A stretch of DNA of 64,000 bases. It comes from a virus. Within the stretch, counting starts at the first letter, position 1. Each line of letters opens with the position of its first letter. Below the pieces are notes generated by a model. The model saw only the letters and a list, made by a program, of their open reading frames with translations, made no database searches and was not told the DNA's origin. Below, piece by piece: positions 28,413-63,933 of the stretch. The position numbers were made by a program, and so were the translations under genes. The stretch lies in IMG/VR virus record IMGVR_UViG_3300024344_003209, positions 35,224 through 99,223 of that record; one strand, written 5' to 3'.

Positions 28413-28433
28413 CAAACCTTAAACCTTGCACTT

Positions 28434-28441
28434 AATTACAC
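28434..28441 (-). promoter_or_regulatory. Putative late promoter motif GTGTAATT
   Basis: Intergenic; the same motif precedes several structural genes. Confidence 0.6.
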
Positions 28442-28445
28442 TATT

Positions 28446-32603: not shown

Positions 32604-32606
32604 TTT

Positions 32607-33023: not shown

Positions 33024-33028
33024 TTTAA

Positions 33029-34816
33029 TTAAATATTAGTTTGTAATGGAGGATTATAGCCTGTCTCCATAACAGTACCTGTTATACGGACCTTATCTCC
33101 GTACCCGTCTGCGCCACTAAACACTAAATTATACACCATAGGATCAGTATCTAAATAATTTTTCGCTTGAAGTACTACCCCTAGGAATGTTTCATCGTTG
33201 CCTTTATGTCTCCTTAAGGGTGTATTCTCTATTCCTGTCACGGTATGCTCTATATAATCAGAAGTATCGTCTCCATAGGTCCCAGTAAACAACTTCCAAT
33301 CTGAAGCAGGTTTTTTGTATGAATAGACCTTAGCTATTCCGCTAGGCTTTTCAGATACATTATCCGATGTAGAAGTGCTAAACACAGTCACAACATCTAA
33401 AACGTTAGCGTGTTGAGATATAACAGTCCCATCTTGCATTTTTTGTATGTTGTTTTCATGAGATCCAAGCCCGGCTCCCGGTTTATGTAAGTTAGTTCTT
33501 ATTGAATCTATATTAGCCTCAACCAGCATCCCTTGGTATTCAACTCCATCACTAATAAGTCCAGTAGCTTTTTCCTCTAGCTGACTTCCAAAAGTAGCAC
33601 CGTTTGTCGAACTTGCTGCCCCGCCAATTTCCCCTTTTCTAAAAGTAACCTCTCTAGTAAGGTCTCCACCAACAAAGGTGCCTTCGCTATTGACGGCATA
33701 ACCTTTTCCGCTTCCGCTAAGCTGAACTCCCGTTATAAAAGAATAGTTCTTATCATGATCTCCTTCTACATGCTCTAAATATATCTTATAAGGTATACCA
33801 TCAGAAAGATCTACACCTTCCGGGATATCGACAGAATAATTTACAGCAAGTTCTCCACTAACTAAATCTCCATTTTGACTTAAAAGAGAATGGGTTGTAT
33901 TCTGTCCGCTCTGCAGAGGGTAAGCGTCTCCACCTATAGACACTTTGACTCCGCTAGGGTTATCCTGTGATCCGCCCAATACAGTAAAATTTCTAGTTAT
34001 ATTACCAAACGTAGTATAAAAATTTATTTCGACTGGATATGCACCATCTGTTAAATCAGTGTTCGCTTTTAATATTAAATCTTTTACATTCTCGCCTACT
34101 GAAAATCCGGGTAAGCCGCCGCCATTTACCCCGCTTAAAGTTTTTAAAGTACTCTCTCTATTATCGAATTCAAAAAACTCTGACCCCAAAGTAACTTCTC
34201 CTGAGATTATGTCTCCTTTTATATTTTGCGTTTTATTAAATACTATTGCGTCCGGAAAAGTAAGATATTGACCAGCGCTAGAATTAGATTGATATATATT
34301 ACTACCATCGCCTACGTTTCCGTCACCTATATTGCCAGCAACTCCTATATTTCCTCCATCTATATTAGCCGCAAATATCATTGGGCTATTTATATCTAAA
34401 GTACCAGTTGGTCCATAAAAATTTAAATCATTTAATTCTATTTCGCAATTTTCTGATTCAAAAAATATCTTATCAACATGGTATTGCTCCTTAGTCCCTA
34501 AAGAAGATATTAAATTATCATCTATGAAATAATCGTAAGTGGTAAGACCTATAGTACCTTTTAAATTTATTGGTGAATTTCTTTGATAAGAATATACATT
34601 ATTACCATTAGGGTCAAAAATTCTACCACTTTTAAAATTAAATAAAGTTGACTCAGGAGTTGTTGGATTATTATTTTGGTCTACTTTAACACCAGAGACA
34701 CCAAAGGAAGCTTCGCCGGTCAAGTTAGTCAACTCCATATCTAGCTCGAAAGCCAATACGCTATTGCTATATTGATTGCCATATATTCTCCTTATGTTTC
34801 TTCCTGATAGCTTCAT
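33029..34816 (-). CDS. Putative structural protein (595 aa, Gly/Ser/Thr- and beta-rich)
   Basis: Composition and position; TAATG coupling to the upstream gene. Confidence 0.65.
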   Translation of the reverse strand: MKLSGRNIRRIYGNQYSNSVLAFELDMELTNLTGEASFGVSGVKVDQNNNPTTPESTLFNFKSGRIFDPNGNNVYSYQRNSPINLKGTIGLTTYDYFIDDNLISSLGTKEQYHVDKIFFESENCEIELNDLNFYGPTGTLDINSPMIFAANIDGGNIGVAGNIGDGNVGDGSNIYQSNSSAGQYLTFPDAIVFNKTQNIKGDIISGEVTLGSEFFEFDNRESTLKTLSGVNGGGLPGFSVGENVKDLILKANTDLTDGAYPVEINFYTTFGNITRNFTVLGGSQDNPSGVKVSIGGDAYPLQSGQNTTHSLLSQNGDLVSGELAVNYSVDIPEGVDLSDGIPYKIYLEHVEGDHDKNYSFITGVQLSGSGKGYAVNSEGTFVGGDLTREVTFRKGEIGGAASSTNGATFGSQLEEKATGLISDGVEYQGMLVEANIDSIRTNLHKPGAGLGSHENNIQKMQDGTVISQHANVLDVVTVFSTSTSDNVSEKPSGIAKVYSYKKPASDWKLFTGTYGDDTSDYIEHTVTGIENTPLRRHKGNDETFLGVVLQAKNYLDTDPMVYNLVFSGADGYGDKVRITGTVMETGYNPPLQTNI

Positions 34817-37800
34817 TATATTGACCTTAAGGTTGCCTTCTTGGCTCCATACTCTTGAGACACAGGCCCAACCTTTCTGTATATCTCTTCTAGCGCAACA
34901 TCAGCAGAAGCCCTATTACTTAAATTAACATTAATACTGAATCCTGCCTCTGCCATTGATATGGATAGAGAGTCTAGTCCATTTTCTGGTTTTAATAAAG
35001 CAATTAAAGTATTAAGACCATCTACGCTATCAACATATACATTAAAAGAATAACTTTTTCTTGGCTCGTCTACTTGAAGATCAACAAGATTACCTTTTAT
35101 TTTTTGGTGATACTCATCAGCGCTCATGTTTTGTAGCTCTGTATATGTAACATCTCCTTCAGTTTGCTGCACGTTCTCTACATCTGCAACTATATTAGTA
35201 GGGATTTCTCCTCTTAGTATTTTTTGTTTGTTATTTTCGTTTATGACACTAGTTATATCTTGTGTTATATCTTTTATTTGATATTTAACAGAGGAAGCTG
35301 TTTTTGCTATTGGCACCTTGTTTCCGTTTATAGGGTCAAAGACTTTTCTGACCCCTAAATCAGTTATGGTACTATTTCTATTGTAAATAAGCATTCCGTT
35401 GTGAGCGTTTTCACTTGGATATATTATATCAACTTTGTTCTTCCCTTCCGTACCTACTTTAATATCAGAGTAAAGGTTCTCTTTTCCCGCTGTAAATTCA
35501 TTTAAAATGCTAACACCAACTCTCCTATTGCGCCTAAATAAAGTTATACAATCTGCGTATATGCCCTCTTTGTCGCTAAACAAAGCTCTTTTATCAGTCT
35601 GAAGCTCTATATCGTATAAAGAATCAGCTATAGCCTGAGCCTCCCCACATGTTTTGTCTTCTTGGTTAAAAAGCTTAGAAGAGCAAATTTCCTCAACAAA
35701 GTCTCTCTCGCAGACAGTCTTGAGTTCTGCTGTCATGTCACTCATAGCATCAGTTGATCGGTCGCACAAACTTTTTAAAGCGTTTATTTCTTCTATTGGA
35801 TTTCTTACTCCGCCTTTGGTTTGATTGATCCTTCTTCCTGATCTATCGTAGTCAACAACATCATCTTTAAAATTATAACTTATGCCTAAATCCCCTATTT
35901 TACTTAAAGTAATCGTGCCCTTGACATCTTCCCCTTTGACCATGACTATTACGAATTTTTTATTAGAAGCTTCTCCCACTTGCATCATATGATGAATCTT
36001 AGCTGGTAAAACGCTAGTCATTAATGCCATCAAAGGTGGCTCATTCATAAAAGGCGTATATTCTTTAAGTAATGGAGTTTTGACTCTTTCTTTTACTGAG
36101 TCGCTATAATGAGTGACTTTTCTAGCAGCCGCTCCGCTTCCTACATCAAAAGCGGGCCTTCCGCAAAGTTTATAAGGATTTAACAAAGATTCTATATCTT
36201 CTTGAAAAGTGGCCCAAGGAGCGTCCCTTTCAAAATGATAAAAACCTCTTTTAAAAGCATCTTTGTATAAACTTTTATCTGTTTTCTTTTGGTTGCATTC
36301 GTCTATCGCATCGAACTGCATTTGGTTTAACTCGTCGTAGAGTTTATTCCTATAAACCTCATCATTATCCATCATCCTATTAAGCCTAAGGTCATTTATC
36401 TTTTGCGCAAACTTAGACATAGGCGTCTTATAGTGTTGGTTTAAGGAGTAATATTGAGAAGAAGGTCTAGTCTCGGTAGTCTCCTCTATTTTGCTATTTC
36501 CTGTAAAATCAAAAGTTGCAGATTTTGGAGCACCAAGTAGATAATGTCTGCCCAGAAAAGATTCAGCTATTTCGCTTTCTATAGATTCAGATAGACCCTT
36601 TAAAGATTCGTCATATACCCCTAGAAAGATTTTATAGCCGTCTATGATTCCATTCATAGCCTCTTCCGCAGTGCCTTGGTAAGCTTGATGAGAAGCCATC
36701 ATCTGAACTAAGGCTGCGTTATCTATAACATGAGCTCTAAGAGCTTGACTCACCGAGTCTTTCGCGTAATTAACTGGCACTACATCGTCAAAGCCTATAG
36801 CTCTATAATACCCTCTTGCTGCATCAAGACCAGAAGTCATATGGGTTTCGATAGCTTTTCTTGCGTTCCATACGTCTCTTAAGTCTTCAGAATACTTTCC
36901 TAAGCCAGAACTTATTTTTATGTCGCGAGGAGTTCTCCCGCTAGATATACCTGAAGCCATTATTGACTCTATGGTTTGGCAATCAAAAAATATTTTGCTT
37001 GTCTTTCTTTTCGATTCGTTTTTAGCTCTTGGTCCAACGCTGAAAGTAGAGGAGAAAGCCTGAGAGAAAGTCCCATTAAGGTCTACCTTCTCATTTTGTG
37101 AATTAATAATCACCCCACTTGCCCCTGAGCCTGAAGTACTTCCTTCTTGTCCTAAATCTAAAGTTGTTATAGCCGCTGCTGTTTCTTCTACCTTTGCATC
37201 TACTGATCTATCCGCATTGCTTATTATAGAAAGAGTAGGAAAATCTTGAGTAAAGTCCCAGTAATAAGATATACCTAAATCGTTACCCCAATTCTGTAAC
37301 ACATCTCTAACTGTTCCCGTATAAGACCTAAGCAATAGATTAGCGTCTTCCACATAAACATATCTACTTAAGTCTATATTTATCCCAAAACCATTTTTTC
37401 TGTCACTTAGAGCTTTCCTAAAGTCTTCAAACGAGTAGCTAACATCTTTTATGTCACACTCGACTTCGCTAAACTCTTCCCTACCTAATACCATATACCC
37501 TCCCTCCCATATATTACTTTTATTTTGGGGGTAAATCATATAAGGCCTCCCGGCTACACCAGTAGGCGAAGCTAGCTTTTTCATTACTTTAACATCTTTA
37601 TGTAAAGTGGTTCCCTCCTGACTACATACAGGGCCAGTATTAGTTTGCTCTAACTGAGGACAAAAAACATCGAACTTAACTAAGTTAGGCACTAAATGTT
37701 TTTCTTTATCTATTTGGAAATGTTGATGAATTAAACCTACAAAAATTCTATCTAAAAGAACTGATCCATCGCTATATGTTAAATTTAAAACTTTATTATT

Positions 37801-44022: not shown

Positions 44023-47000
44023 TTAAGCAACTGGCGCTGCTGAATTCAGCGCTGCGGGGTCTTGTATACTCTCTAGTCTATCTAATCTATCAGCTAAAGA
44101 TCTCATTTCGTCTGCTCCCGCACGTAAAGCGCTAGGTGTATTGCTGCTTACCATCGTTGCACTATCAGGAGCACCACCCATTTCAACAACAACATTAGTT
44201 GTATTTGTGCTTTGGTCATTACTTGTGTTATTATTAGTTACGTTAATAGGTTTGCTATCAAGTTCTTTTATTCTACCTTGAGCTTCCCCTCTTTTTTCGG
44301 AGTTTGTGTCGCGTACTCTTTGCCCAGCTTTTTGAATCTCTTCTTGGTCCGCGCCACCATAGGCATCATCATAAGCGTTGACTGCGGCTCCGCCTAAAAG
44401 CGCACCGCCTACCCACCCAGCGACCATGCCTATACCCCCTCCTATTGCTGTTCCAATTCCGGGAGCAATCATTGTACCTAAAGCCGCTCCAGCTTTTGCG
44501 CCTCCCCAAGCTCCAACACGAGAGCCTACTTTTTTACCCACATAAGCTCCTGCGACACTCCCTGCAACGTTTCCTGCTATCTTTCTGTCTTGTTTTTCGG
44601 CATCGCTCAGTCCTTTACCTGACTCATTTGCAAGAGCCTCAATTTCTTCAATATCCATATCTGTTAAAGAAGACATTGAATCTCTATAATCCTTCATCCT
44701 AGTCCTAAGAACGCCTCCTTGTGCGGACCTTCGCTGGGCATTTCGTTGTTGTTCTTTGTTTATCTTTAGCTGATCTTCAAGTGATTGAGTTTTTAATTCT
44801 ATACCGCTTTTGAGAGTGTCGTTTAAACTCTGTAGAGCTTTAGTATTCTGCTCTTGAGGGTTTCCTTTAAACAAAGCTGAAGCTTTTTCGGAAGCTGTTT
44901 TTCTTATATCTTTCTCCGACATTCCTAAACCTAGCGCTCTGTTCATTAGTCTAGTATCGTTTAATGCAACTCCAAAAGCTTCTTGTCTAGCTCTACCTCT
45001 CATATGATCGGGTAGTTCTCCCCCGGCTAGTTCCTGTATAGCTGCAAACCTATTAATTCTAGCTCTACCTACACCCACTCTGCTACCAGCGGATCTCGCT
45101 GTCATTTCAGCTTGGCCAGAGGCTCTTATTGTGGAGAACTGAGCGTTTAATTTACTTGGGTCAAGCAAAGCTTGCGTGCCGCCAAAAGACCTAAGTCTTT
45201 GAGCTTGTCTTGCTGCTTCTATTTGAGCTTTAGTCTGTTCGTTGATTTCTTTAGTTTGCAACTGCAGCTCTTCTTTCATTCTTTCGCTGGTTCCGCCTAA
45301 ATTTTCTACAGCTATTTTTGTGCCCTCAAGTAAGTCTGCTTGGGCTGTATCTTCAGCTATTTGCTCATCAGTTTTCCCTTCTTTTGATCGAAGTTCATCC
45401 ATTCTAGCCTGTATTCTATTTGCTTCTCTTTGGGACTCTGCTGCTGAAACGGACCCTATCCCGCCTCTTGCCGCTTGATTCATTAATTTACTAACTGACT
45501 TTTCTATATCTTCTCCTAGTATCCCGTCTGTCTGCCCTAAAGCGGTTTGGACTTCCTGAACTGTTCCGCCAAACTTAGTATTAGCGTCCGCTGTTATTTC
45601 TGAAATTTTATTTATATTGTCTAATTTTATTGAACCTACTTCTGTTAAGAATGCCTTTGCGGCCTTAGACGTTATCTCCATCACAGCTTTTCTCGTCTTC
45701 AGCTCTGACTCCATAGTCCTCTTCATTCTATTGACCCTCATAGTAGCTTCTCTATTGGCTTTAGCAAAAGCTTCTAATTCTGGCCTCATTTTTTCTCTTA
45801 TTTTTAGAGTCTGTTGAGTCTCAAGCGCTGATTTTGATAAACCTCTTATAAATTGCTCAGCAACAAAGCCTCCTTCTTGAAAAATATTTCTTAAGCTTGC
45901 GAATGCTTTTGCATCTTTTTCAGGATCTAAATTTAAAAGCTCTCCTGCTTTTTTAACTCGAGCGTCTACGTTATTTTCGTCGATTCGAGCTAAGTCCTTA
46001 AGATCTTTAGAAAGGCTTCCGTCATCTCTGAACGAATCTATACCTTGTCTAGTTATACTAGCTTGAACAAAGTCTGAACCTACTCTTTTTAAGTCTTGAC
46101 TAATAACTTTAAGGTCCTCTTCACTTCTGCCTAATATATCGTTGCCCGCAGTTTTATTTAATATGCTCTGCAGAGGAGAAGAGAAAAATTCTGCGAATCC
46201 TGCATCCCTGCCTCCTCTGACAGTATCTGCTGCAAACTTACGTTTTTGGGCTGCGTCCGCTAAGTCTCTTTCTTGCTGCTGAAACTGTTGTATCATACCT
46301 CCAATAATTTTGGGATTTATCACTCCAGCTAATTGTTTTTGATATTTTGCTGGGAGTTTAGCTAATTCCTTTTCAACCGCTTTAGTGGCGTTTAGCATCT
46401 CCGTTACTGTTGAGTTGGCGTTATTGAATACGTCTGTAACGTTTTGAGTTGCGTTACTGAATTTATCTAAAGCTCCTATGTTTTTCTCTGTAGCTTCTCT
46501 TACTTTTTCAAATTCTTTGGCTGCTAGCCTAGCCTCTTTAAAAGTTGCATCAAGATCAGACTCAGAAAATAAGTCGCCTAAAACTTTACCTAACGCTCCA
46601 GCAGCTAAAAGTCCTCCGCCGATCTTTGCTGGTCCTGCACCTCCAAGAAAACGTCCAGCGCCCGCTACTGCTCGTCCTGCGCCTCCACGAACGAAGCCAG
46701 CCGCTCTTCTACGCCGAGACCCAGCTGGTCCGAAAAATGGACCCCCATCTCGGTTATTAACGAAAGCTCTGTTTCGTCCTTGCATTCTTCTACCGAGTCG
46801 ATCCATCAAAATTGGAGCCCCTCCCATTCTTCTTCTTCTAGCTCTACCTAATTGCGAGTTAAATTCATCTGTGCCCCTTGATGCAGTTATGCCTCTAGAT
46901 TGATTAAATTCACCCATTGCATATCGCAAAGCAACACCCACCCCGACTAAAGTAGCTATACTATTGGTAAGAGATTTAGCCACTGTGTTGCTTTCGCTAA

Positions 47001-50000
47001 CAGCATTATTTAATCCAGATGCAGCCTGCTCAACTAAACCCATAATGAGAATAGTCTTCATTGCGCTATTGGTGTTTTCTTTTACTGCTCTAGTGTTTCT
47101 GTTCGTAGAAGAATCTTTCCCTCCGCTACCGCTTCCCGGCCCTGTTAATAATTTAGGTTTGTTTTCAGGTACGTCAACGATAGTGGCTCCTCCAAATTTT
47201 CCACCTCTTCCTCCTCCAGAGCCCGAAGCAAGCCCCGGATCGTGTCCGGCATATTTCTCTCCTGCTCTTTGAGCGCTCTTAAAGAATTTTTCGCTAAATG
47301 CTTTTTCCCCCTCTTTGAAGGCTCTAGTAAATGTATTAACTAGACTTGTTTCTAATGTGTCTAAGTCAAATGCTGGTCTAACAGCAGGTAAATTATCGCT
47401 AAAGTTAGGTACATACCCAGCAGCTCTACCTTGTCTTTTCGGGTCAACACCGGCGGCTATGCTATTATTAATCCCCTGACTTAAACCCATAGGTTCGTCT
47501 CTAGTATTGTAAATACCTAAACCAGCCGGGTTAGCTGAGTTTCTTAATCTATCACTTTGGCCTAATCTAATTCTTCCTGAAGGAACGCCTGCGTCTCTTT
47601 CTCTTCTAACGGCTTCGTGCAGCGCATTAAAATTTGGTATAAAGCCTGAAGATCTAGCTCCAGCGATAGCTTGTTTAATGTCAGTAATATAACCTTTAGA
47701 ATCTTGGCCAAATGCACTAGCGGGTGTAGAGTATATTTTTTTAACTATAGAGCCTGTGGCTGAATCGGTTAGTGTCCTTTTGGCGTCTGCTTTTTTCAAC
47801 TTATTGTTAAAGTCGAAATAGTCCATGAAGTCTTTGCCTCCTCCTGAAAAATCCCAAGTTTGTTGTTCGTCTGCGCCCAAAGCGTCTTCGAAAGCTGGTG
47901 ATGATCCTGAAGTTAATGCGTTTGCTACAGTTTCAAATATGTTGCCTTCTGCGCTAACAGAAAACAACGGTCTCCCATTACCTGATATATTAGCAGATAT
48001 AGCTTTGTTTTTTAATAATTTTTTACTAAAAGCATTAGCTAAATCTTGCATAGGTTGGGAGAATTGAGATCTAACTTCCTGACTGAACCAACCTTTTCTG
48101 TCGTTATCGTCTAAATTATTTCCAAGAGATCTAAATTGAACATTTTTAAATCCAACTCTGTCGTAAAAGCCTTCCAGCTGTTGTTTACTTAATTTTTTCC
48201 CTCCAAATGTTATTTCCTTTGAGCTCGTCTCTATATAGCCTCTGTCTGTACTTGTTCCATATAAACCTAAAGCTCCAATTTGATTCTTTGCGTCGTAAAC
48301 CCTAATGCCTGCTGCTTTTTCTTTTGTGTTTACGTTAGCTCCTTGGCCCGTAACCGCATCCCCTTTGAGTTTTTTGTTTCTTAAGTCAACTAACCCTTGG
48401 TCTTTAATTTTCTTACCTCTTATTCTTGCTGCGTTAAGGTCGTCTTCAGAAAGACCCAAATCAGGTCTTCCAGCATTAAGTACGTTTGCCGACATTTCTC
48501 CGCTTGCTACGCCTGACTCTATTCGCTTTAGTAAGTCTTCCTTTCCGAGTTTGGATTTCCTTATGAAAGGAGCTAGCGACACGCCAGCAAAGTTAGGTAC
48601 AAATCCTCCGCTTAAAGAAGACATATACTCTTTGTAAGCATCTGTATTTCTAGGCGGAACCACAAAGGTAGCTTTTCTACCCATAGAATTTCTTGTGTTT
48701 ATAACGTCTTCATATCCATTTATAGTAGCGTTAAATGAACCGCCTCTGCCGTCGTGTACTTTTTGCCTTTTTACTTTTGGGTTTCTGATTTGTGACCTAG
48801 AGTAACCGGAGGCCATCATACCCCCGACTTCGTCAGCAAAGTTAGGAGCGTACCCACCAGAAGCTCCAAATCTTGGTTTAGAACCTCCTGTGAAAGCTCC
48901 GAAATCAGGACTGAACCCAACTCCCGAACCAGATAATCCTTGAGCTAGTCTTTGGGACATTCTAAGTTGTTCTTCTAGAGCGTCAGTGTTTTTACTTATT
49001 TGGCTGAATATTTCTCTGTGTGCGTCTTCTACCGATATAGCCCCATCTTTAATCCTCCTCATTAAGTCAGGATTTTCTTCTAGGACATTGAAAATTTGTT
49101 TTTGTAAGTTGAGTTGAGTTTGGAAATTTTTATTAAGTCCTGTTAAAGTCTTGAAAGCATCTGCTGCAAACTTACCTAGTTGAGAAAACGTTTTAAATAG
49201 AGTGAAGCCTATGATTAGCAAACCGGGGCCTGCTATGAAATTACCTATACCTTCAAAAATACTTTTAGCTATTGCTCCGCCAATCTTACCTCCGTCAGTT
49301 TCTCCTAATTTTTCAAAACCCTCTACGATGCCAAAAAGCCTTTCTAAAGCTGGACCAAATGTTAGCTGACCTAACTCTGCCGCTCCTTCTTTGAATGTGT
49401 TTACTGTTCTATTGAACTGAGCAGCTAGAGTCTTATTTAACTCTTCATTCCTTTTTATAGCTTGATCGCTAGAGCCCAAAGATATTCCTAAAGCTCTATT
49501 GTATATACTGGTTTCTTTACTTAAGTCGCTCATTGCAGCTTTAAGTATGTTAACTTGGAACACACCACCAACGAGCTCTGATATTTGCGACCTTTGAGAC
49601 TGGCTTAAATTATCAAATTGTTTAGCTAAGTTATTTAGTACTTTAATGGCTGGCAATACATCACCCTGAACGTCTCTAACTGCTACGCCTAAGTTCTCAA
49701 GTTCTTTTATTACTCTTGGCCTTTGTATCCTAGTGAAAATAGTTTTAAAGCTGTTTCCTATTACCGCTCCACCCCTAGCTGTCTTTTGTTGGACTGTTGT
49801 TACTATAGCTAGAAGTTCGTCTAGGCTTACTCCTGCGCCTTTAGCTGAGGAACCTACACGACCTAAGGCTTTAGCTAGGTCATCTGAGCTAACAGCAAAA
49901 GCAGCGTCTACGTTAGCAAGTTTATTGATTATAGTCGTGCTATCTAGCCCAGCTTTATTAAAAGTGTTTATAGCCGCAGTTAACGAGTTTACAGCTTCAG

Positions 50001-50427
50001 CTGCGCCCATACCAGATAATCTAGCTAATATAAGAGCATCTCTGGTTCTTTTTAAAGTCTCTTCAGTGCCTAGACCTTGTCTTGCTAGCTCTGCAGCAGC
50101 TTGAGCAGCTACTTGAAAACTTTGTCCAGTCTGAGAAGCTATATCGAAAAGATCAGAGCCAAATTTCTTAAGGTTAACAGATGTGGCTTGAAGTATTACA
50201 TTGATATCTTTTAGGCTTTTTTCTACTTCAATTGCAGCTTTTACTGTAGCAGTAAGCGCTTTTCTGACGGCAAGAATTGCTCCCGCTGAAGCGCCGAAAG
50301 CCAAAACACGAGCGTTAGAAGCGTCAAGAGACTTCTCAAACTCCCCGAGTTGACCATTTATTCTACCAAGAGGCCTAAAACCCTTAGCGTTTAACACAAG
50401 ATCAATATTAATTTTGCTGCTTGCCAT
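44023..50427 (-). CDS. Tail tape measure protein (TP901-type core) with inserted domains
   Basis: N-terminal ELARQG..AL.LA, VD..FAVS..DLA and A..GG..IGNSFKTIF.R core; long Ala-rich helices; C-terminal glycine zipper. Confidence 0.9.
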   Translation of the reverse strand: MASSKINIDLVLNAKGFRPLGRINGQLGEFEKSLDASNARVLAFGASAGAILAVRKALTATVKAAIEVEKSLKDINVILQATSVNLKKFGSDLFDIASQTGQSFQVAAQAAAELARQGLGTEETLKRTRDALILARLSGMGAAEAVNSLTAAINTFNKAGLDSTTIINKLANVDAAFAVSSDDLAKALGRVGSSAKGAGVSLDELLAIVTTVQQKTARGGAVIGNSFKTIFTRIQRPRVIKELENLGVAVRDVQGDVLPAIKVLNNLAKQFDNLSQSQRSQISELVGGVFQVNILKAAMSDLSKETSIYNRALGISLGSSDQAIKRNEELNKTLAAQFNRTVNTFKEGAAELGQLTFGPALERLFGIVEGFEKLGETDGGKIGGAIAKSIFEGIGNFIAGPGLLIIGFTLFKTFSQLGKFAADAFKTLTGLNKNFQTQLNLQKQIFNVLEENPDLMRRIKDGAISVEDAHREIFSQISKNTDALEEQLRMSQRLAQGLSGSGVGFSPDFGAFTGGSKPRFGASGGYAPNFADEVGGMMASGYSRSQIRNPKVKRQKVHDGRGGSFNATINGYEDVINTRNSMGRKATFVVPPRNTDAYKEYMSSLSGGFVPNFAGVSLAPFIRKSKLGKEDLLKRIESGVASGEMSANVLNAGRPDLGLSEDDLNAARIRGKKIKDQGLVDLRNKKLKGDAVTGQGANVNTKEKAAGIRVYDAKNQIGALGLYGTSTDRGYIETSSKEITFGGKKLSKQQLEGFYDRVGFKNVQFRSLGNNLDDNDRKGWFSQEVRSQFSQPMQDLANAFSKKLLKNKAISANISGNGRPLFSVSAEGNIFETVANALTSGSSPAFEDALGADEQQTWDFSGGGKDFMDYFDFNNKLKKADAKRTLTDSATGSIVKKIYSTPASAFGQDSKGYITDIKQAIAGARSSGFIPNFNALHEAVRRERDAGVPSGRIRLGQSDRLRNSANPAGLGIYNTRDEPMGLSQGINNSIAAGVDPKRQGRAAGYVPNFSDNLPAVRPAFDLDTLETSLVNTFTRAFKEGEKAFSEKFFKSAQRAGEKYAGHDPGLASGSGGGRGGKFGGATIVDVPENKPKLLTGPGSGSGGKDSSTNRNTRAVKENTNSAMKTILIMGLVEQAASGLNNAVSESNTVAKSLTNSIATLVGVGVALRYAMGEFNQSRGITASRGTDEFNSQLGRARRRRMGGAPILMDRLGRRMQGRNRAFVNNRDGGPFFGPAGSRRRRAAGFVRGGAGRAVAGAGRFLGGAGPAKIGGGLLAAGALGKVLGDLFSESDLDATFKEARLAAKEFEKVREATEKNIGALDKFSNATQNVTDVFNNANSTVTEMLNATKAVEKELAKLPAKYQKQLAGVINPKIIGGMIQQFQQQERDLADAAQKRKFAADTVRGGRDAGFAEFFSSPLQSILNKTAGNDILGRSEEDLKVISQDLKRVGSDFVQASITRQGIDSFRDDGSLSKDLKDLARIDENNVDARVKKAGELLNLDPEKDAKAFASLRNIFQEGGFVAEQFIRGLSKSALETQQTLKIREKMRPELEAFAKANREATMRVNRMKRTMESELKTRKAVMEITSKAAKAFLTEVGSIKLDNINKISEITADANTKFGGTVQEVQTALGQTDGILGEDIEKSVSKLMNQAARGGIGSVSAAESQREANRIQARMDELRSKEGKTDEQIAEDTAQADLLEGTKIAVENLGGTSERMKEELQLQTKEINEQTKAQIEAARQAQRLRSFGGTQALLDPSKLNAQFSTIRASGQAEMTARSAGSRVGVGRARINRFAAIQELAGGELPDHMRGRARQEAFGVALNDTRLMNRALGLGMSEKDIRKTASEKASALFKGNPQEQNTKALQSLNDTLKSGIELKTQSLEDQLKINKEQQRNAQRRSAQGGVLRTRMKDYRDSMSSLTDMDIEEIEALANESGKGLSDAEKQDRKIAGNVAGSVAGAYVGKKVGSRVGAWGGAKAGAALGTMIAPGIGTAIGGGIGMVAGWVGGALLGGAAVNAYDDAYGGADQEEIQKAGQRVRDTNSEKRGEAQGRIKELDSKPINVTNNNTSNDQSTNTTNVVVEMGGAPDSATMVSSNTPSALRAGADEMRSLADRLDRLESIQDPAALNSAAPVA

Positions 50428-56590: not shown

Positions 56591-56627
56591 AAAAGAAAAA
56601 AGGGCAACCTAAAAGAAGGTTACCCTT
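56591..56627 (-). terminator. Intrinsic terminator
   Basis: AAGGGTAACCT-TCTTTT-AGGTTGCCCTT followed by TTTTCTTTT. Confidence 0.8.
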
Positions 56628-56915: not shown

Positions 56916-57230
56916 TTAACTTACTGATGGAGCAGTTAATACTCCAGTATACAAATCAGGTGCGTCTTTTTGCGCATCAATTTGACCAGCTAAGTTAGTT
57001 TTCCAATCTCCAAAGTCAGCAGCTCCATTACATATAGAAGATAAATCTAAGTCTTCTCCTGCTACCCTTTCTACTCCAGTTAACTGCACTGTTGTGTCTA
57101 TATAAGCGCTATAATCACCGTCTGTAGCCGACATACCTACTACTACTTCGCAGATTTTTCCTTCGTCAGGATCTCCTGCCTTACAGACGCATTTAGCTTC
57201 TATTCTTGAAAATGTATATTCTATTGCCAT
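56916..57230 (-). CDS. Small fibre-associated protein, paralog B
   Basis: MAIEYTFSR ... YTGVLTAPSVS. Confidence 0.7.
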   Translation of the reverse strand: MAIEYTFSRIEAKCVCKAGDPDEGKICEVVVGMSATDGDYSAYIDTTVQLTGVERVAGEDLDLSSICNGAADFGDWKTNLAGQIDAQKDAPDLYTGVLTAPSVS

Positions 57231-57247: not shown

Positions 57248-57571
57248 TTAAGAAACGCTAGGAGGACTTAAGACTCCTGTCCATTCATGAGGCACTTCCT
57301 GTTGTCCAGAAATGTTTTCCTGAATTACATCTTTAACGTTATTGTCTGATACGAATCCATTAAGCAGGGCATCCAAATCAAGTGCAGACGGAGCAACGCT
57401 AGCGTCACCAGAAAGATTTATGTCATGGTTAGCATAAGCTTCGTAAGTTACCCCATTTACTGTTTCTTCGCCTTTTAAAGTGAACTCTACCTTTGTTGTT
57501 TTTTCGTTAGAGCCATCTGTATCGCTTGTGCAAAGAGGATTAACTCTACTAAATGTATATTCTATAGCCAT
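57248..57571 (-). CDS. Small fibre-associated protein, paralog A
   Basis: MAIEYTFSR ... WTGVLSPPSVS. Confidence 0.7.
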   Translation of the reverse strand: MAIEYTFSRVNPLCTSDTDGSNEKTTKVEFTLKGEETVNGVTYEAYANHDINLSGDASVAPSALDLDALLNGFVSDNNVKDVIQENISGQQEVPHEWTGVLSPPSVS

Positions 57572-57609: not shown

Positions 57610-58710
57610 CTATGTAGCCTCGAGAACCTCTGGCTGAAGTACCGGCTGTTGTTGTTGAGGCATTGGTATGCCTTGTGGTTGACCGCCAAACAAGCCCTGT
57701 TGAGGAGGCATCCCTTGTGGTGGCATCCCTTGTGGAGGGCAAGGTTGCCCCGGGCCACATCCTTGTTGTTGAGGTGGAGGAGCCATACTCATTAGACTTT
57801 TAGGGAATTTAGTATCTTTTTGCCTTTTTAAGCTTTTAACAACTTTATCTATATCAAAAATATTATCATCTTTAAATGGGCACATGTGAGGTTGACCAGA
57901 TATATCTAAATCTCCTAAATAGCTATCAATTAAATGAGTTTTCTTTAATGTTACATTACTTACTATATTATCATGAAAATGCTCATAACCTAAAGCTTTA
58001 ACATTATCCATTGGCCATAATACAGTAGATTTTTTGCCTAAAGCCATAGCTGCATGCTGAGCAAAACTATCAATAAATAATCTTTTACTAGACCATTTTA
58101 TTAATGCTATTAATTCTCTAACATTTGGGCTTGAAACCCAAGACATATTCTCAAAACCGGGTTGATGTTCAGTCCTTATTTGAACTAGATTATAATTTTC
58201 AAAAAACGGCTCAATCATTTTTAAGACATTTGGCAACGGTGCATCCCTTACCCAAGACATAGGAGCTCTGTCCGCAGTCATAGCCCCGCCGTTAGTTTGA
58301 ATTAAAAAAATTGGCTTATCTGAAGAACCAAATTGCATCCTAGCCTGTTCGGATTCTGAATGAGTTAAGTAAATTTCAGGTTTTTCTCCACTATAATCAA
58401 CCCCTAAAAGCTCGCACCAAGCTTGAATACAATGAACTTTTTTATTAATGTAGCCATGGTGGTGGTATGGCTCTTGTTTCATAATTAGAGTATCTTTATC
58501 TCTAATATAATCTTCGAAAATGTAAGGGGTATTACCTAATTGATAAAATCTTTCAACATTTGGGTTGTTAAACCAAATAGCTGGCCATGAGCCAATAGTG
58601 ATAATATCTCTGTCTGGGTACTTCTTTTTGATAGCCGCGGCAACCGCAGTTGCCATGATATTCTTACCGATTCCGCCTTCTACATGGAAGATAATATTCT
58701 TGTCATTCAC
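57610..58710 (-). CDS. GT9-like glycosyltransferase with Gln/Pro-rich tail
   Basis: EGGIGKNIMAT..IKKKYPD, HCIQAW, IALIK.S..LFIDSFAQHAAMALGKKSTVLW; GTG start. Confidence 0.75.
   Translation of the reverse strand: MNDKNIIFHVEGGIGKNIMATAVAAAIKKKYPDRDIITIGSWPAIWFNNPNVERFYQLGNTPYIFEDYIRDKDTLIMKQEPYHHHGYINKKVHCIQAWCELLGVDYSGEKPEIYLTHSESEQARMQFGSSDKPIFLIQTNGGAMTADRAPMSWVRDAPLPNVLKMIEPFFENYNLVQIRTEHQPGFENMSWVSSPNVRELIALIKWSSKRLFIDSFAQHAAMALGKKSTVLWPMDNVKALGYEHFHDNIVSNVTLKKTHLIDSYLGDLDISGQPHMCPFKDDNIFDIDKVVKSLKRQKDTKFPKSLMSMAPPPQQQGCGPGQPCPPQGMPPQGMPPQQGLFGGQPQGIPMPQQQQPVLQPEVLEAT
57704..57733. repeat. 15-bp tandem repeat encoding (QGMPP)x2
   Basis: ggaggcatcccttgt / ggtggcatcccttgt. Confidence 0.8.
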
Positions 58711-58758
58711 AAATAGTTATATTATTATCTTGTGATTTAGACTAAAAAATATTTTTGC

Positions 58759-61700
58759 CTAGTCGCCATTAAGTGCTTGATAATCCGACATATTCCTAAC
58801 TAACGTATGGGAAGAAACACTCCTATTACCTTCTTCGTTTTCTTCTCCTTCGTATTCTACTGAAGATTTCACAAAAGGAGAATCTCCATTAATATCCCTA
58901 GAAGTTCCCGCCCATGCGTTTACAGCCGCCGGGTCTTTTCTTGTACCGATCAACAAGACATTATAACACCCATCAAAATTAGAACAGATAACTAAACAAC
59001 ATTGATCAGCAGTGACTTCTCCATAAGCAGATCCAAAATTTTTGTACGGAGATACCCAAACCATATCGTCTTTGTTCAAATGTCTGTAATAATCTGGTAA
59101 AATTATTGTATTAGTACAATTTGTTGTTTCTACTTGCCATCTATATATATTGTCTCCTTCGTTTGGAGACTCGACAAATGAATGCCATAAATCTTTTGTT
59201 GCTGATTTTGCAGGATCTGGGTGCACAATCCTAAATGATCCTGATGATTTGGCTACGGTACCAGAAAAAGTAAAACAGTTTACACATATGCGACCGTTTT
59301 GCATACTGCTATTACCAATAATCATGCAGTTAGATTCTGTGTCAATAACGGTCTCCATCCCGGCGCAATATCCGATCAAAATATTGTTAGACCCGCTGGT
59401 GATATGCCCGCCTGCGCACGCCCCTAAAAAAGTATTACAAGACCCAGTAGCTTGAGCAGAACCTCCAGCAATTCTCCCCACAGCCGTGTTCATATGACCA
59501 GTTGTAAAACCGAATCCTGCTGCAGATCCAACGAAAATATTGCAACATCCGGTGCACAAACACGCTCCTGCGTTGTTCCCCAGAGCCAGATTTTTTTTGC
59601 CAGTTGTTAGAACGCAAAGCGTCGAATCACCCACACTAGTATTGCAATCCCCCGGACAATTATTACAACAACAGCCAACTACACCCTGCATGGAATGAGA
59701 TCCTATAGCGGTATTACGATTCCCTCTAAACACTGACAATGCCTTATGGCCAACAGCAGTATTTTGGCAGCCCGCAGCACAACACAAAGCTTGGTACCCA
59801 AAAGCCGTGTTACACTTAGCGTTAGCCACTTTACATTTAAAAGAGCAGGATCCAAAACCTTGGTTAACACAACCACTTGACTCAGTGCAGCCAGCACTAA
59901 TACCAGTTAAGTTAGAACCATCGCCATAAAAATGACTAGCGCACATATGCTGAGATGCGCATATACAATTTGTTGATTTTATAGTGCCAGCCATGGACAG
60001 ACAGTTACTACAAAGGTAAGAAGATCCAGAACAGAACTTGCCACTATTCATAAAACTAGTGCCACAAACAACAGGACTTTGAACGCAAGTAGGAGCACAT
60101 AAAGTAGCAGCTTCAATCTTAGAGCAATGACAAAGGCACGCTGAAAAAAGCGCCATTTGTCGATTATTATTTATTCTCCAGTCATGACAAGTATCGCATT
60201 TTGCAAAATAAGTCCATTGCCCATCTGCATCAAGGAAGCCCATGTGTTTACTATCAGCGTATGTGTAGCCTTGAATAGTAGTATCGGATGTCTGAAATCT
60301 TATACCAGCGACGGTTCCGTGAGCACTCTTATAATTTAGTAAGTGGCTATCTTGCTTATGAAGACACAAACCATTTATATTTAATATATTAGCAACGTAA
60401 AAATTATTAAGGGCACAGGTGTAAGTACTAGTCAGACATAATCTTGCACTGCCAGCAGCCGAAAGTAACATATTGCCTGATGAATTAATTCTAGCGGAAT
60501 AATTATTGTGAACGTACATGGATAAACATTGCGCATTGTCCGCAGCGTCACCAGAAGACTTCTTAATCCTTAGTATAGAATGGCCAGTACCCATCATGTT
60601 AAGCTGAGTATTCCAGCTTCCCTCATTAGAGTAAGCTTCCCCAATTGCTAAACCTAGATTATCACCAGCCGTAGAAATGCTAGCGCAACCAGTAGAACAA
60701 AGTACAGTAGACTTCACGCAAGTAGTAGCGCAAACCCTAGGAGTATGAAGACAGGTCATAGCACATTGGTATCCAGCCATACTCTTTGAACTAGTTCTCA
60801 AGTCTGTACTAGCGCAATTATAATAACTATCAGTACAAGTTACTCGCTTAAGATACCAAGGAGTACACATGTTCATTGCGTTACAATAGAATAATCCATT
60901 TGTTATGCTTCTTACATGAACCGAGCCGTAGCTCCAAGTACTATCACATTCTCCAAGTAGTATCACGTATCGACCGTCGGAAGTACCTCCACAAGAATGA
61001 TAAGCTAACTTAATACTCTTGTCTGAACAGCCACCTGTTATATGAGCTCCACAGTTGTACCATCGGCAATTCCAGTTGTGCCCACCAACAATAATAGTAG
61101 TAGCATTATTATTATTGTATTCATAAACATCAATAGCTACGTGAACCATTCCATGATGAGTGCTACCGCCTTCTCCATCTAGAGTTGGCAGACCAATTTC
61201 TATGCGGCCAGTTGTGCTGCCGCTTTCTCCCCAAAGAGCTTGAGGCAATCCTCCGGTACGACCTAAGGTAACACCATTTGCCATGTCACCACTCGGATCA
61301 CCAGCTAAACATAAGCGCGGGGAATTCAAATGCCCTGTGCTACAAATTGTAGGCGCTTTCATCGAACCAGTAGCGCAAAGAATAGCAGAACACATACAAC
61401 TACCAGCATATACAAATGTTTCGGAATGCAAATACTTTCCATATATATTACAAGAAAAGTTCGCGCATCTAAATCTATTATTAGTAACTCCTACATCAAT
61501 TTCTGCATCATTATAACCTGATAAGTGGCCGGTATCAAAGGCAAACCTACCTTGCTGTGTTTCTAAGTACATTCCATTAGCGTTATTAACACTTTGTATG
61601 TACCCCCAGCCATTATCATTAGCTGGGCCATAAATCATATAGTTGTCACCTGATCCGCAGAGCTTCAAACGAGTATCATTTGAATTAGTTAAATCAACGT

Positions 61701-63933
61701 TCCCTATTCTAACTCTAGTCTCAGCACAAAGTAAAGGAGATTTAACACAAGTAAGAGCACAAAGAGGATGGTAAGCACACATCATACCGGATGAATGATT
61801 CCCTTCTATCCTAAGCCCCCACTGCCCACTACAATTCAATAAACCAAAGTTAGACGTACCATCAAAATATACATAACCCCTTGCCGTACCGTCACAAGCG
61901 CGAAGATATATTCCACCCGGAGCAGTACAACCACTATATACATTAAGATAAGGGTTACCTGAGTGATTTCTTAATATATTAGTCTGAACACAGCTAGTAC
62001 CACAAAAGACATTAGAATAAACCTGAGAGTGAAAGTAGAAAGTACCAGAACCATCTCCACTATGGAAATTGAGATTACCGCCGGAAGCGCATACTTTCCA
62101 AGACCTTGTACCGGTTTGATCAAACTGCAAACAACCAGAAGGAAACACAACAGGAGTCACAACGCACGTCGCCGCACAAAGCCTATTAGTATCCCAGTGG
62201 CCACCTGCGCCACCTACGGCATAAAGAGTACCCTCAAATAACATGTTTGAAGTAGCGCAAATACATGTAGACTTCATGCAAGTAGTAGCACAAACATTTT
62301 GTATCTTTAAAGTGTTTTCAACATTTGAAGACTTGTTATGAGCAGCAGGATTACCATTTAATAATTCTCCGAAACTAGGCTCCATACCATTCATTTCGTA
62401 AAAACCCGGCCCCCACCATTGCACAACTTCATCGCCACCGTCAGAGTAGTAAAGATAAACTCTATGCCCATTACTATGGCAAGTAGAAGAGCCCATTCTG
62501 TACGTGGTGTTTGTTCTTGTTTTTGTGCCATCACACAATCTATAGACTCCACCATTATAACTTGAGCTTGTATCATCGCAACCAACTATATATCCAACAG
62601 ACACATACCATTGTCCTTCTTCAAAATTAGATATGCCTGAACTCATGAAATAAGGATTAGTATTAGCGCTTCCGTCAATATTTCTTATATCGTTTGCTCC
62701 AGAACCTGTTCCATGATAAAACGAACCGCTGTTGTTACCAGCAACCAGTTTTTTCAAATATATAACAGATAAATAAGATCTTTTTGGATCAAGATTACAT
62801 ATACCTTTAGTCCAACCGCCATCAGCGTCACTAGCTGTATCGTTTTGGTAACTATGCCATATTAAAGATCTGCGGCCCCAAGGGTCAATACCATAGCAAG
62901 TCCTATTGCACTCAGCTACAGCATGGAAAGCGTTGCTGTCAGGTGAATCTTGGCTATTATTACCAGTAGGGCAATATCTCCAACAACTAGAAGGGGCGTA
63001 GTTCCATCTTACGTGTTTTGCTACTTCTCCTCTTGGGCTTGCATTGTCTCCGGTCGATCCACTCAAACAAAGTTTTACGCCTTGTGATGTACCACAACTA
63101 ACTATACTAGTATTAGCGCAAAGAACACCACATGCCTGAACAGCTCCTCCGTTATGTATTACAAGTCTGCCACTGTTGTTGGTGCCAAAGCATATAGCGT
63201 TATTAGATCTATTCCATATGCATATATGAGATGCGGCTTGATCATTTTCAATTTTTAACACCTTACTGTTATCATGCCTAATCCATGCATAGTCAGAACC
63301 AGAAAAATCTCCATCAGAGCCGTCTAATAATAAAGTTGCGGTGTTATCAGTTGAGCCTATATATACAGCCTTTGCGCCTGCACCGTATGTTTTAAAACAA
63401 GTACCAGCACAAATTATAGGAGAATACAAACAAGTGTCTGCTTTTGCAATTGCAGTAGAACAAAGCATAGCAGACCTAACACAGTCTGCACCACACACAG
63501 AGGAGTGAGAACAAAGATACGTAAAAGCTGTAATCCCTCCACTAGATTCAAAATCGCCTGCTATATCTAGATCGCCTGATACAGCTGCATTGCCTCCGGA
63601 GTAAAGACAACTAGTAGCACAAAGTTTAGCAGACTTAACACAGGAAGTACCACAAAGAATAGGAGTCTGAAGACAAGTACAACCATAAACACATGTTCCT
63701 AAAATTCTAAGGGCGTCGTTCCATCCTCCGCCGCTATACGTTCTTATCTTAAAATCTTGACTGGCTGCTCTTTGGAGACTTATATCTACAGAGCCATGGG
63801 AAGTCCCCATGTAGATATCATGAGCGCTGCTATTGACAAACCTTGCGCTGCCGCAAACCATCAAATGTTCTGGCGCTGTAGTTGTGCCATTTACCGTTAA
63901 TTTTGTCGCACAAGTTGCTAATAGATTTGCCAT
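58759..63933 (-). CDS. Cysteine-rich tail fibre/adhesin (1724 aa)
   Basis: FYGDGSNLTG, NTAxG beta-roll repeats and a C-terminal SFRIVHP..L.HSFVESP domain seen in phage fibres; about 117 Cys by hand count. Confidence 0.8.
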   Translation of the reverse strand: MANLLATCATKLTVNGTTTAPEHLMVCGSARFVNSSAHDIYMGTSHGSVDISLQRAASQDFKIRTYSGGGWNDALRILGTCVYGCTCLQTPILCGTSCVKSAKLCATSCLYSGGNAAVSGDLDIAGDFESSGGITAFTYLCSHSSVCGADCVRSAMLCSTAIAKADTCLYSPIICAGTCFKTYGAGAKAVYIGSTDNTATLLLDGSDGDFSGSDYAWIRHDNSKVLKIENDQAASHICIWNRSNNAICFGTNNSGRLVIHNGGAVQACGVLCANTSIVSCGTSQGVKLCLSGSTGDNASPRGEVAKHVRWNYAPSSCWRYCPTGNNSQDSPDSNAFHAVAECNRTCYGIDPWGRRSLIWHSYQNDTASDADGGWTKGICNLDPKRSYLSVIYLKKLVAGNNSGSFYHGTGSGANDIRNIDGSANTNPYFMSSGISNFEEGQWYVSVGYIVGCDDTSSSYNGGVYRLCDGTKTRTNTTYRMGSSTCHSNGHRVYLYYSDGGDEVVQWWGPGFYEMNGMEPSFGELLNGNPAAHNKSSNVENTLKIQNVCATTCMKSTCICATSNMLFEGTLYAVGGAGGHWDTNRLCAATCVVTPVVFPSGCLQFDQTGTRSWKVCASGGNLNFHSGDGSGTFYFHSQVYSNVFCGTSCVQTNILRNHSGNPYLNVYSGCTAPGGIYLRACDGTARGYVYFDGTSNFGLLNCSGQWGLRIEGNHSSGMMCAYHPLCALTCVKSPLLCAETRVRIGNVDLTNSNDTRLKLCGSGDNYMIYGPANDNGWGYIQSVNNANGMYLETQQGRFAFDTGHLSGYNDAEIDVGVTNNRFRCANFSCNIYGKYLHSETFVYAGSCMCSAILCATGSMKAPTICSTGHLNSPRLCLAGDPSGDMANGVTLGRTGGLPQALWGESGSTTGRIEIGLPTLDGEGGSTHHGMVHVAIDVYEYNNNNATTIIVGGHNWNCRWYNCGAHITGGCSDKSIKLAYHSCGGTSDGRYVILLGECDSTWSYGSVHVRSITNGLFYCNAMNMCTPWYLKRVTCTDSYYNCASTDLRTSSKSMAGYQCAMTCLHTPRVCATTCVKSTVLCSTGCASISTAGDNLGLAIGEAYSNEGSWNTQLNMMGTGHSILRIKKSSGDAADNAQCLSMYVHNNYSARINSSGNMLLSAAGSARLCLTSTYTCALNNFYVANILNINGLCLHKQDSHLLNYKSAHGTVAGIRFQTSDTTIQGYTYADSKHMGFLDADGQWTYFAKCDTCHDWRINNNRQMALFSACLCHCSKIEAATLCAPTCVQSPVVCGTSFMNSGKFCSGSSYLCSNCLSMAGTIKSTNCICASQHMCASHFYGDGSNLTGISAGCTESSGCVNQGFGSCSFKCKVANAKCNTAFGYQALCCAAGCQNTAVGHKALSVFRGNRNTAIGSHSMQGVVGCCCNNCPGDCNTSVGDSTLCVLTTGKKNLALGNNAGACLCTGCCNIFVGSAAGFGFTTGHMNTAVGRIAGGSAQATGSCNTFLGACAGGHITSGSNNILIGYCAGMETVIDTESNCMIIGNSSMQNGRICVNCFTFSGTVAKSSGSFRIVHPDPAKSATKDLWHSFVESPNEGDNIYRWQVETTNCTNTIILPDYYRHLNKDDMVWVSPYKNFGSAYGEVTADQCCLVICSNFDGCYNVLLIGTRKDPAAVNAWAGTSRDINGDSPFVKSSVEYEGEENEEGNRSVSSHTLVRNMSDYQALNGD

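Follow-up and report, generated by a model that had tools for sequence, protein, structure and literature searches.

A Cysteine-Rich Tail Fibre and Its GT9-Fold Neighbour: A Candidate Fibre-Decoration Cassette in Phages

The stretch of DNA discussed here, which comes from an uncultured marine phage, is 64,000 nucleotides long and is called the window below, covers positions 35224-99223 of the 99,223-bp IMG/VR record IMGVR_UViG_3300024344_003209 (contig id G000). Near its end, on the minus strand, two genes stand next to each other. One encodes a tail fibre that is exceptionally rich in cysteine; the other encodes a protein with the fold of the GT9 glycosyltransferases, in which the aspartate expected to serve as catalytic base is replaced by lysine. 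This pairing recurs in many unrelated phages and, for this reason, the enzyme probably coats the fibre with sugar. With a probability of roughly 55%, the two genes belong to a fibre-decoration cassette, in which the enzyme glycosylates the adjoining Cys-rich fibre.

How might such a cassette work? The fibre, presumably a beta-helical trimer, would be co-transcribed with the phage-specific enzyme, which would act on it in the cytoplasm, before or during assembly, most likely with an ADP-heptose-type nucleotide sugar as donor. Not all of the cysteines need have the same role. The conserved CxxxC pairs of the shaft, together with C1606 and C1650, probably have a structural role, either binding metal or forming disulfides once the virion has been released; the scattered cysteines of the exposed NTAxG turns, which shift from one relative to the next, are candidate modification sites. 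Coordinates below refer to the window, unless they are preceded by the label of a contig (G) or of a locus (L).

The Fibre Gene and Its Product

58759..63933, minus strand: Cys-rich fibre gene; 1724 aa, exactly 117 Cys (6.79%)

An initial annotation, made from the letters of the window, had estimated about 117 Cys, or some 7%, and had described the other structural proteins as Cys-poor. Both statements hold. The Cys content is about six times the usual level (the median for the whole contig is 1.15%), and the fibre is the sole open reading frame (ORF) above 3.4% Cys among the 54 of at least 150 aa on the contig, the runner-up having 3.35%. All other ORFs of this size in the window contain 0-2.7%. 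The two fibre strings quoted in the initial annotation were located at residues 1375-1395 and 1455-1469.

The assignment of the 1724-aa protein as a fibre is made by homology: residues 1359-1526 match the PHROG tail spike family 4636 (E 3.6e-16) and the virion structural protein family 6002, and the distant homologues, which are named tail fiber domain-containing proteins, carry PF13884, PF03906 or PF05658. By Cys content, the homologues form two groups: the 30 closest, 29 of them with 4.7-7.5%, and some 90 distant YadA-like fibres, whose median is near 0.4%. No match to the region was found by blastn among phage records, no related loci were returned by a search of IMG/VR with the fibre C-terminus, and self-BLAST of the fibre revealed no large internal repeats. 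An AlphaFold2 (AF2) monomer model of residues 1330-1724 had a mean predicted local distance difference test score (pLDDT) of 59, too low for use.

Two other large proteins are encoded in the window. The tape measure protein (44023-50427, minus strand) has 2134 residues, not one of them Cys, and it points to a non-contractile tail of great length. The tail module has, at its distal end, a giant ORF of 5688 aa (11346-28412, minus strand) with 0.49% Cys.

The Enzyme and Its Family

57610..58710, minus strand: GT9-fold glycosyltransferase-like gene; 366 aa, GTG start agreeing with homologues; assigned by fold and profile
58663..58677, minus strand: GGIGK loop; residues 12-16, with K16 aligned to the catalytic Asp13 of WaaC
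57613..57783, minus strand: Pro/Gln-rich disordered C-terminal tail of the enzyme; residues ∼310-366, pLDDT below 50

The enzyme gene begins 48 nt past the fibre stop. An AF2 model based on 32 homologues (pLDDT 84.6) has the two-Rossmann GT-B fold, and the top PDB matches in Foldseek are 3tov, a GT9 enzyme of Veillonella (E 6.5e-12), WaaF (1psw), TibC (4rb4/4rap; E 5e-7) and WaaC (2gt1/2h1h). Also among the top fold matches are three chains of the chloroplast NDH-PSI complex (9grx_1, 7wff_a and 7f9o_6). Profile comparison by hhalign with E. coli WaaC/F/Q/U agrees (probability 93.6%, E 2.1e-7, 226 aligned columns), pairing G15-K16 with G12-D13 of WaaC and D214-S215...H219 with D261-T262...H266, so that residues of the donor site are retained. 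The stretch around the phosphate-binding K192 of WaaC aligns poorly; near the aligned Trp the family has W153-x-R155, with Arg in 330 of the 341 sequences that have a residue in that column (97%). The GT9-like call of the initial annotation is supported by both of these methods but not by Pfam. In fact, only fold and profile-profile comparison reveal the GT9 link: the enzyme has no Pfam, NCBIfam or annotated PHROG match, not one of the 120 homologues listed for it carries a Pfam domain, and a family profile run against PDB sequences gave nothing significant. One neighbour cluster in the ESM Atlas carries PF01075 on 45% of its members.

An Asp-to-Lys replacement in the GGIGK loop had also been claimed; residues 8-17 of the enzyme read FHVEGGIGKN. 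The claim is correct, because K16 aligns with D13 of WaaC, the proposed catalytic base of all heptosyltransferases; in WaaC, the D13A and D261A changes lower activity ∼4700-fold and ∼2000-fold, respectively (PMC5713226). The replacement runs through the whole family: among 346 family sequences, 328 have K at position 16, 5 have R and 1 has D, which gives K/R in 333 of the 337 aligned. Each of G12, Y82, W98, R155, D214, S215 and H219 is conserved at 95% or more in the same set. At 50% identity the family has 723 representatives; it occurs at no fewer than 517 viral loci, and the ESM Atlas clusters nearest the enzyme are 93-100% viral. Judged by these sequence sets, it is a large, phage-only family, and Lys or Arg at the base position is its hallmark.

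Of the five Cys in the enzyme itself, two are in HCIQAWC, one is in HMCPF and two are in the disordered tail, with no paired CxxC. The Pro/Gln-rich tail (∼55 residues) is limited to the closest relatives, and some other relatives have Lys/Arg-rich tails. In contig G014 (the L051 contig), the region 21325-35271 contains a complete enzyme that reads GGLGK, and there the usual WC reads WA.

The Link with Cys-Rich Neighbours across Phages

Does the pairing extend beyond this contig? Two sets of loci bear on this question: 80 IMG/VR loci retrieved by the enzyme alone, and a control set of 80 viral loci retrieved via the fibre motif NTA(I/V)GYxAL, regardless of the enzyme. The per-locus test was limited to loci of at least 10 kb; a large ORF was one of at least 300 aa, and Cys-rich meant at least 4% Cys. 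The initial annotation had suggested testing whether GGIGK-type enzymes co-occur with fibres above 5% Cys, and a link with Cys was found: a large Cys-rich ORF is present in 28 of 69 loci of the enzyme set versus 2 of 44 controls (odds ratio 14, p 9e-6). The median Cys content of repeat-type fibres is 2.9% at enzyme loci versus 0.34% at control loci (p 1e-8); just 2 of the 76 control fibres reach 4%. Position matters too, as 23-33% of the large ORFs flanking the enzyme in the 80 loci are Cys-rich, compared with 0-7% five or six genes off.

The controls tell the same story from the other side. The enzyme is present in a single control locus, whose fibre ranks third in Cys among the 76. Of five further control contigs, four are 95-100% complete by CheckV, and none of these four has the enzyme; for three of them the listed fibres have at most 1.2% Cys, and the fibre of the fourth (L132), which is not in the list, is below 0.96%.

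Within genomes, the most Cys-rich ORF lies one to three genes from the enzyme in G000, in Prochlorococcus phage P-SSM2 and in G010, G012 and G013; the last three were chosen for their Cys-rich neighbours and show only that Cys richness is not genome-wide. Even in the five full-length loci with the lowest Cys, the giant protein adjacent to the enzyme tops the four longest ORFs in four cases, with 1.5-2.3% Cys (18-74 residues) versus 0-1.35% in the other longest ORFs. When the fibre and the P-SSM2 proteins PSSM2_304 and PSSM2_306 are taken together with 42 neighbour ORFs, 38 of these 45 Cys-rich proteins share repeat domains. The enzyme family is strongly and repeatedly tied to Cys-enriched fibre proteins in unrelated phages.

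P-SSM2 and the Sugar Cassettes

The P-SSM2 homologue, PSSM2_307, is 25% identical to the window enzyme and reads GGAGR; the phage entered the comparison through this homologue alone. One and three genes upstream of it are the paralogous PSSM2_304 and PSSM2_306 (L083:8976-11842), each with 355 aa, 36 Cys (10.1%) and CCC, CxC and GAGGG motifs. No other of the 167 ORFs in the 252-kb genome exceeds 4% Cys, and the annotated fibres of this phage have 0.4-1.1%. Downstream of PSSM2_307 follow a carbamoyltransferase and then a sugar cassette, annotated as heptose-1-phosphate adenylyltransferase, carbohydrate kinase, small DxDGT-type protein, cupin and nucleotide-sugar epimerase. P-SSM2 and the loci L026 and L076 all have a five-gene cupin-HAD-adenylyltransferase-kinase-epimerase cassette less than 5 kb from the enzyme, and in L026 it is directly upstream of that locus's 7.4%-Cys fibre. 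The recurrence of this heptose-type cassette beside the enzyme points to an ADP-heptose-type donor, which would match the GT9 fold.

L001:260-649, minus strand: cupin at the very start of contig G000
L083:16352-16708: cupin of the P-SSM2 cassette
L026:2726-3124: cupin of the L026 cassette
L076:12104-12475: cupin of the L076 cassette

What is the cupin? It is a small metal cupin, weakly similar to RemF, QdtA, WbuC and mannose-6-phosphate isomerase, and it is more likely a sugar-phosphate isomerase, since in P-SSM2, L026 and L076 it always accompanies the HAD, adenylyltransferase, kinase and epimerase genes. The label "cysteine dioxygenase" (PHROG 7851, and also in the P-SSM2 record) was rejected, as the matches are to the generic Cupin_1/Cupin_2 only. 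If the genome of the window's phage were circular or permuted, the cupin at the contig start would sit directly upstream of the fibre; no terminal repeat of the contig was found.

The contig has further sugar genes, outside the window. A cluster at L002:3022-11491 (G000 23022-31491) contains a Polysacc_synt_2 dehydratase, a DegT aminotransferase, a GNAT protein, two NeuB proteins (one with a SAF domain) and a cytidylyltransferase, and by its gene content it looks like a pseudaminic/legionaminic-type nonulosonic acid pathway. The same cluster encodes a GDP-mannose 4,6-dehydratase and a metallo-beta-lactamase-fold protein. With both the nonulosonic acid pathway and the GDP-mannose 4,6-dehydratase encoded, the phage invests heavily in activated sugars. 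Two 263-aa ORFs of the cluster found no support in Pfam or NCBIfam as Maf/DUF115-like transferases.

How the Cysteines Are Arranged

59329..59811, minus strand: YadA-like 16-18-residue NTAxG repeats; residues ∼1375-1535, with Cys clustered in the turn positions
58864..59316, minus strand: conserved C-terminal fibre domain; residues ∼1540-1690, with C1606 and C1650 kept in a Cys-poor homologue
60670..60783, minus strand: example of the shaft motif; three tandem 11-residue units xCA(T/M)TC(V/L)x(S/T)Px, residues ∼1051-1088

The fibre cysteines fall into two populations. Those of the nine NTAxG repeats gather in the turn segments that normally read xxNTTGxx (for example, CCAAGC, CLCTGCC and CCCNNCPGDC), and their positions are merely 13-50% conserved among Cys-rich relatives. 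In the Cys-poor homologues, the columns of the fibre cysteines hold S (13%), T (11%), A (10%), N (9%) and gaps (13%); polar or charged residues and gaps prevail, and V, I, L and G are depleted, which argues for exposed, variable positions of the repeat cysteines. By the column comparison and the repeat register, the scattered Cys, which the initial annotation had taken as acceptor sites, lie at variable repeat positions of surface type. Its statement that Cys takes the places usually held by Ser, Thr or Asn is only partly correct: relative to background, Ser is at 1.3x, and Thr (0.9x) and Asn (0.7x) are not enriched; the real signal is one of polar and variable columns.

The second population is paired. 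Cys spacings peak at 4, 7 and 11 residues. The fibre has 23 CxxxC motifs; many of them belong to 11-residue units of the LCATSCVKSPx type, which form clusters along the shaft. Their cysteines are 70-92% conserved among Cys-rich relatives, and CxxxC partners are gained and lost jointly (odds ratio 4.5 vs 2.5 at other spacings). In addition, C1606 and C1650 are present even in a homologue with 3 Cys in 2283 residues and are, because of this, probably a structural pair. Together, conserved CxxxC and C-terminal pairs account for about half of the fibre Cys, and this half looks structural. The residue before the second Cys of CxxxC is S or T in 11-12 of the 23 fibre motifs and in 212 of 420 in close relatives, against an expected 18-20%; this position has the spacing of the POFUT2 sequon. 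LCATSCVKSP and ALCCAAGCQNTAVG would be two types of candidate acceptor peptide.

Around the cysteines, within three residues, acidic residues are scarce (D 0.56x, E 0.38x) and Thr is enriched (1.5x). A Cys-His metal motif was considered and rejected: His is raised throughout the Cys-rich clade (2.75 vs 0.98%) but stands at 0.72x near Cys. A hand count of the cysteines in relatives gave no clear bias toward even numbers.

Comparison with Known Systems

The closest parallel is provided by TibC and AAH, which heptosylate the beta-helical adhesins TibA and AIDA-I, TibC acting on Ser in the repeats (PDB 4rap, 4rb4; PMC4358343). The phage pair has in common with them a GT9-related GT-B fold, an enzyme gene beside that of a repeat-rich, presumably beta-helical surface protein, a donor that is likely ADP-heptose (by the gene context in P-SSM2, L026 and L076), and a modification that would be cytoplasmic and multi-site. 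However, the base Asp110 of TibC corresponds to Lys in the phage family, the would-be substrate is a phage fibre and not an autotransporter, and no sequence-level match of the enzyme to TibC/AAH appeared in the Pfam search or in the search of the family profile against PDB sequences. TibC reportedly carries a Cys4 iron finger and forms a dodecameric ring; the iron-finger pattern is not seen among the five Cys of the phage enzyme.

WaaC and WaaF (CAZy GT9; PDB 2gt1, 2h1h, 1psw) resemble the enzyme in fold, in profile homology, in the N-terminus with its beta1-Gly loop-helix, and in the donor motif, D261/H266 being retained as D214/H219. They differ in that Asp13 has become Lys/Arg family-wide, PF01075 stays below threshold, and the phage genes are phage-restricted and sit in fibre modules instead of lipopolysaccharide (LPS) core operons.

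The only well-established bacterial enzymes that glycosylate the sulfur of Cys are SunS, ThuS and GccA, which belong to GT2 and have the GT-A fold. Each is encoded beside its Cys-containing substrate, as the phage enzyme would be. They act, however, on small secreted peptides and share neither homology nor fold with the phage enzyme, whose model is GT-B and for which Foldseek gave no GT-A match.

The eukaryotic O-fucosyltransferases POFUT1 (GT65) and POFUT2 (GT68; PMC9828666) are GT-B enzymes whose targets are Ser/Thr between the two Cys of small Cys-rich repeats (C-x-x-S/T-C). POFUT1 works without a carboxylate base. The shaft CxxxC has the same spacing and the same S/T position, but POFUT1 and POFUT2 act in the endoplasmic reticulum on disulfide-bonded domains, no homology to them was detected, and most other Cys-rich partners of the phage enzyme family lack the motif.

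Lastly, cyanophage Pam3 has structural disulfides in its fibres and baseplate, and dithiothreitol detaches the fibres (PMC9942802). It is also an aquatic phage with Cys-dependent fibres; unlike the present fibre, it relies on a few defined Cys, not on 7% of the residues, and no associated glycosyltransferase has been reported.

Weighing the Explanations

Several observations count against decoration of the fibre by the enzyme. The enzyme is not matched by PF01075 at E up to 0.1. Of the heptose cassette, only the cupin is encoded on the window's own contig. Five of 42 full-length loci are without a large ORF of at least 2.5% Cys, and the enzyme of L051 (contig G014) sits between a 2036-aa protein with 6 Cys (0.3%) and a 1499-aa protein with none; the occurrence of GGIGK-type enzymes without Cys-rich fibres, which the initial annotation regarded as damaging, is in this respect partly borne out. 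Many of the 80 loci are related, so that the statistics overstate independence, and the control loci, besides being shorter, were not matched to them by environment. The sugar clusters of P-SSM2 were interpreted by Sullivan et al. in 2005 as serving modification of host LPS (PMC1079782).

If the fibre is indeed the target, where would the sugar be attached? Given fibre-directed glycosylation, S-linkage to Cys falls a little short of an even chance, O-linkage to Ser or Thr beside Cys is close behind and roughly as likely, and anything else is improbable.

The first of these linkages is the one advanced in the initial annotation: Lys16 would stabilise a Cys thiolate, in place of an Asp that takes the proton from a hydroxyl, and the sugar would be S-linked to the exposed Cys among the scattered ones. 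In its full form, it makes this phage-only GT9-like branch, with its Lys or Arg, a group of protein S-glycosyltransferases that put heptose or a related sugar on exposed fibre Cys. The proposal is tentative, and its chances are well below even. In its favour are the loss of the general base in 99% of the enzyme family, an association with Cys that spans unrelated types of protein (fibres with YadA-like repeats, shafts with CxxxC, and the Gly-rich P-SSM2 proteins with 10% Cys), repeat Cys that move between relatives while the overall composition stays the same, and the scarcity of acidic residues near Cys. Of the interpretation as a whole, the fold, the Lys and the Cys link have stood, and the finding that about half of the Cys are in structural-type pairs weakens it. 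We know of no precedent for an S-transferase of GT-B or GT9 type, and this speaks against it, as do the Cys-poor neighbours of the L051 enzyme. Moreover, the Lys/Arg might bind an anionic group or serve a base-less O-transfer, as the Arg of POFUT1 does, and Pam3 has proven structural disulfides in both fibres and baseplate (PMC9942802).

Next comes O-glycosylation of fibre Ser/Thr by a BAHT-like enzyme, with structural Cys defining the folded motif that is recognised, as in the C-x-x-(S/T)-C of POFUT2. This is doubtful, slightly more so than S-linkage, but several points favour it: TibC modifies Ser in beta-helix repeats (PMC4358343), S/T is in excess before the second Cys of CxxxC, the CxxxC pairs come and go jointly, and Thr is enriched near Cys. 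The disulfides of Pam3 fit this reading, and so does an enzyme with Cys-free neighbours in L051. The difficulty is that CxxxC motifs are few or lacking in most of the other Cys-rich proteins linked to the enzyme, so that no common sequon is visible. Such transfer also normally retains a carboxylate or His base, and it leaves unexplained why Cys enrichment tracks the enzyme across unrelated folds.

Perhaps the enzyme does not act on the fibre at all. It might modify a host envelope glycan or a lipid-linked intermediate, for instance the LPS core in order to counter superinfection, and the fibre Cys might then bind metals or lock the fibre by disulfides in oxic seawater. LPS cores are the canonical acceptors of GT9 enzymes, the G-rich loop with its Lys could bind phosphate or carboxylate, and the L051 exception is consistent with this idea. 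To these points can be added the published view of the P-SSM2 sugar clusters (PMC1079782) and the disulfide precedent of Pam3 (PMC9942802). Nevertheless, it is unlikely: it gives no reason for the enzyme to adjoin the most Cys-rich protein of the genome in lineage upon lineage, the nearest ESM Atlas clusters are almost wholly viral, and the gene lies within structural operons, not in moron-like positions.

Very unlikely, in the end, is a non-catalytic protein that has kept the GT-B fold as a fibre assembly factor, chaperone or virion component. For it are the loss of the catalytic Asp and the place of the gene directly after the fibre, which is the usual site of tail-fibre assembly genes, and the NDH-PSI chains may be a precedent for a non-enzymatic GT-B-fold protein. 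The conservation of D214, S215, H219 and R155 at 95% or more and the nucleotide-sugar synthesis cassettes adjoining the enzyme in three phages speak against it.

Neighbouring Genes

57248..57571, minus strand: small ORF of 107 aa, paralogue of the 104-aa ORF
56916..57230, minus strand: small ORF of 104 aa, paralogue of the 107-aa ORF
56600..56627, minus strand: strong terminator-like hairpin after the two small ORFs; 11-bp stem and T run

No terminator was found between the fibre and enzyme genes. Since a terminator-like hairpin occurs only after the two small ORFs, the fibre, the enzyme and these ORFs look like one transcription unit. Both small proteins, encoded between the enzyme and the terminator, begin with MAIEYTFSR and finish with PSVS, and neither has a family match in PHROGs or NCBIfam.

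Elsewhere on the contig, a 254-aa protein is encoded between two ribonucleotide reductase subunits (L001:8315-9079, minus strand); its glycosyltransferase-like matches are weak (PHROG 34859, and Pfam Anp1 below threshold). A 326-aa protein at L001:1900-2880 (minus strand) has a prokaryotic N-terminal methylation (prepilin) motif.

Concluding Remarks

Full-text searches of the literature gave no paper connecting Cys-rich fibres to a heptosyltransferase-like enzyme of phages, and no report of S-glycosylation in phages. To our knowledge, virion glycosylation has been shown in only a few phage groups. If the enzyme does decorate the fibre, virion glycosylation would be extended to marine phages, and a function would be at hand for hundreds of unannotated phage genes, including one in P-SSM2.

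Should the linkage be to sulfur, the fibre would be the first viral S-glycoprotein and its enzyme a GT-B enzyme operating without a carboxylate base, which would mean virions coated with thioether-linked glycans, a modification chemistry so far reported for no virus, and a mechanistic class new to the GT-B fold. Thioglycosides resist glycosidases, and for this reason such chemistry could be practically useful. In both cases, a fibre Cys content of 5-10% matters for receptor recognition, for virion stability and for the trace-metal or redox chemistry of phage particles in seawater, and, as P-SSM2 is cultured, the question is open to direct test.

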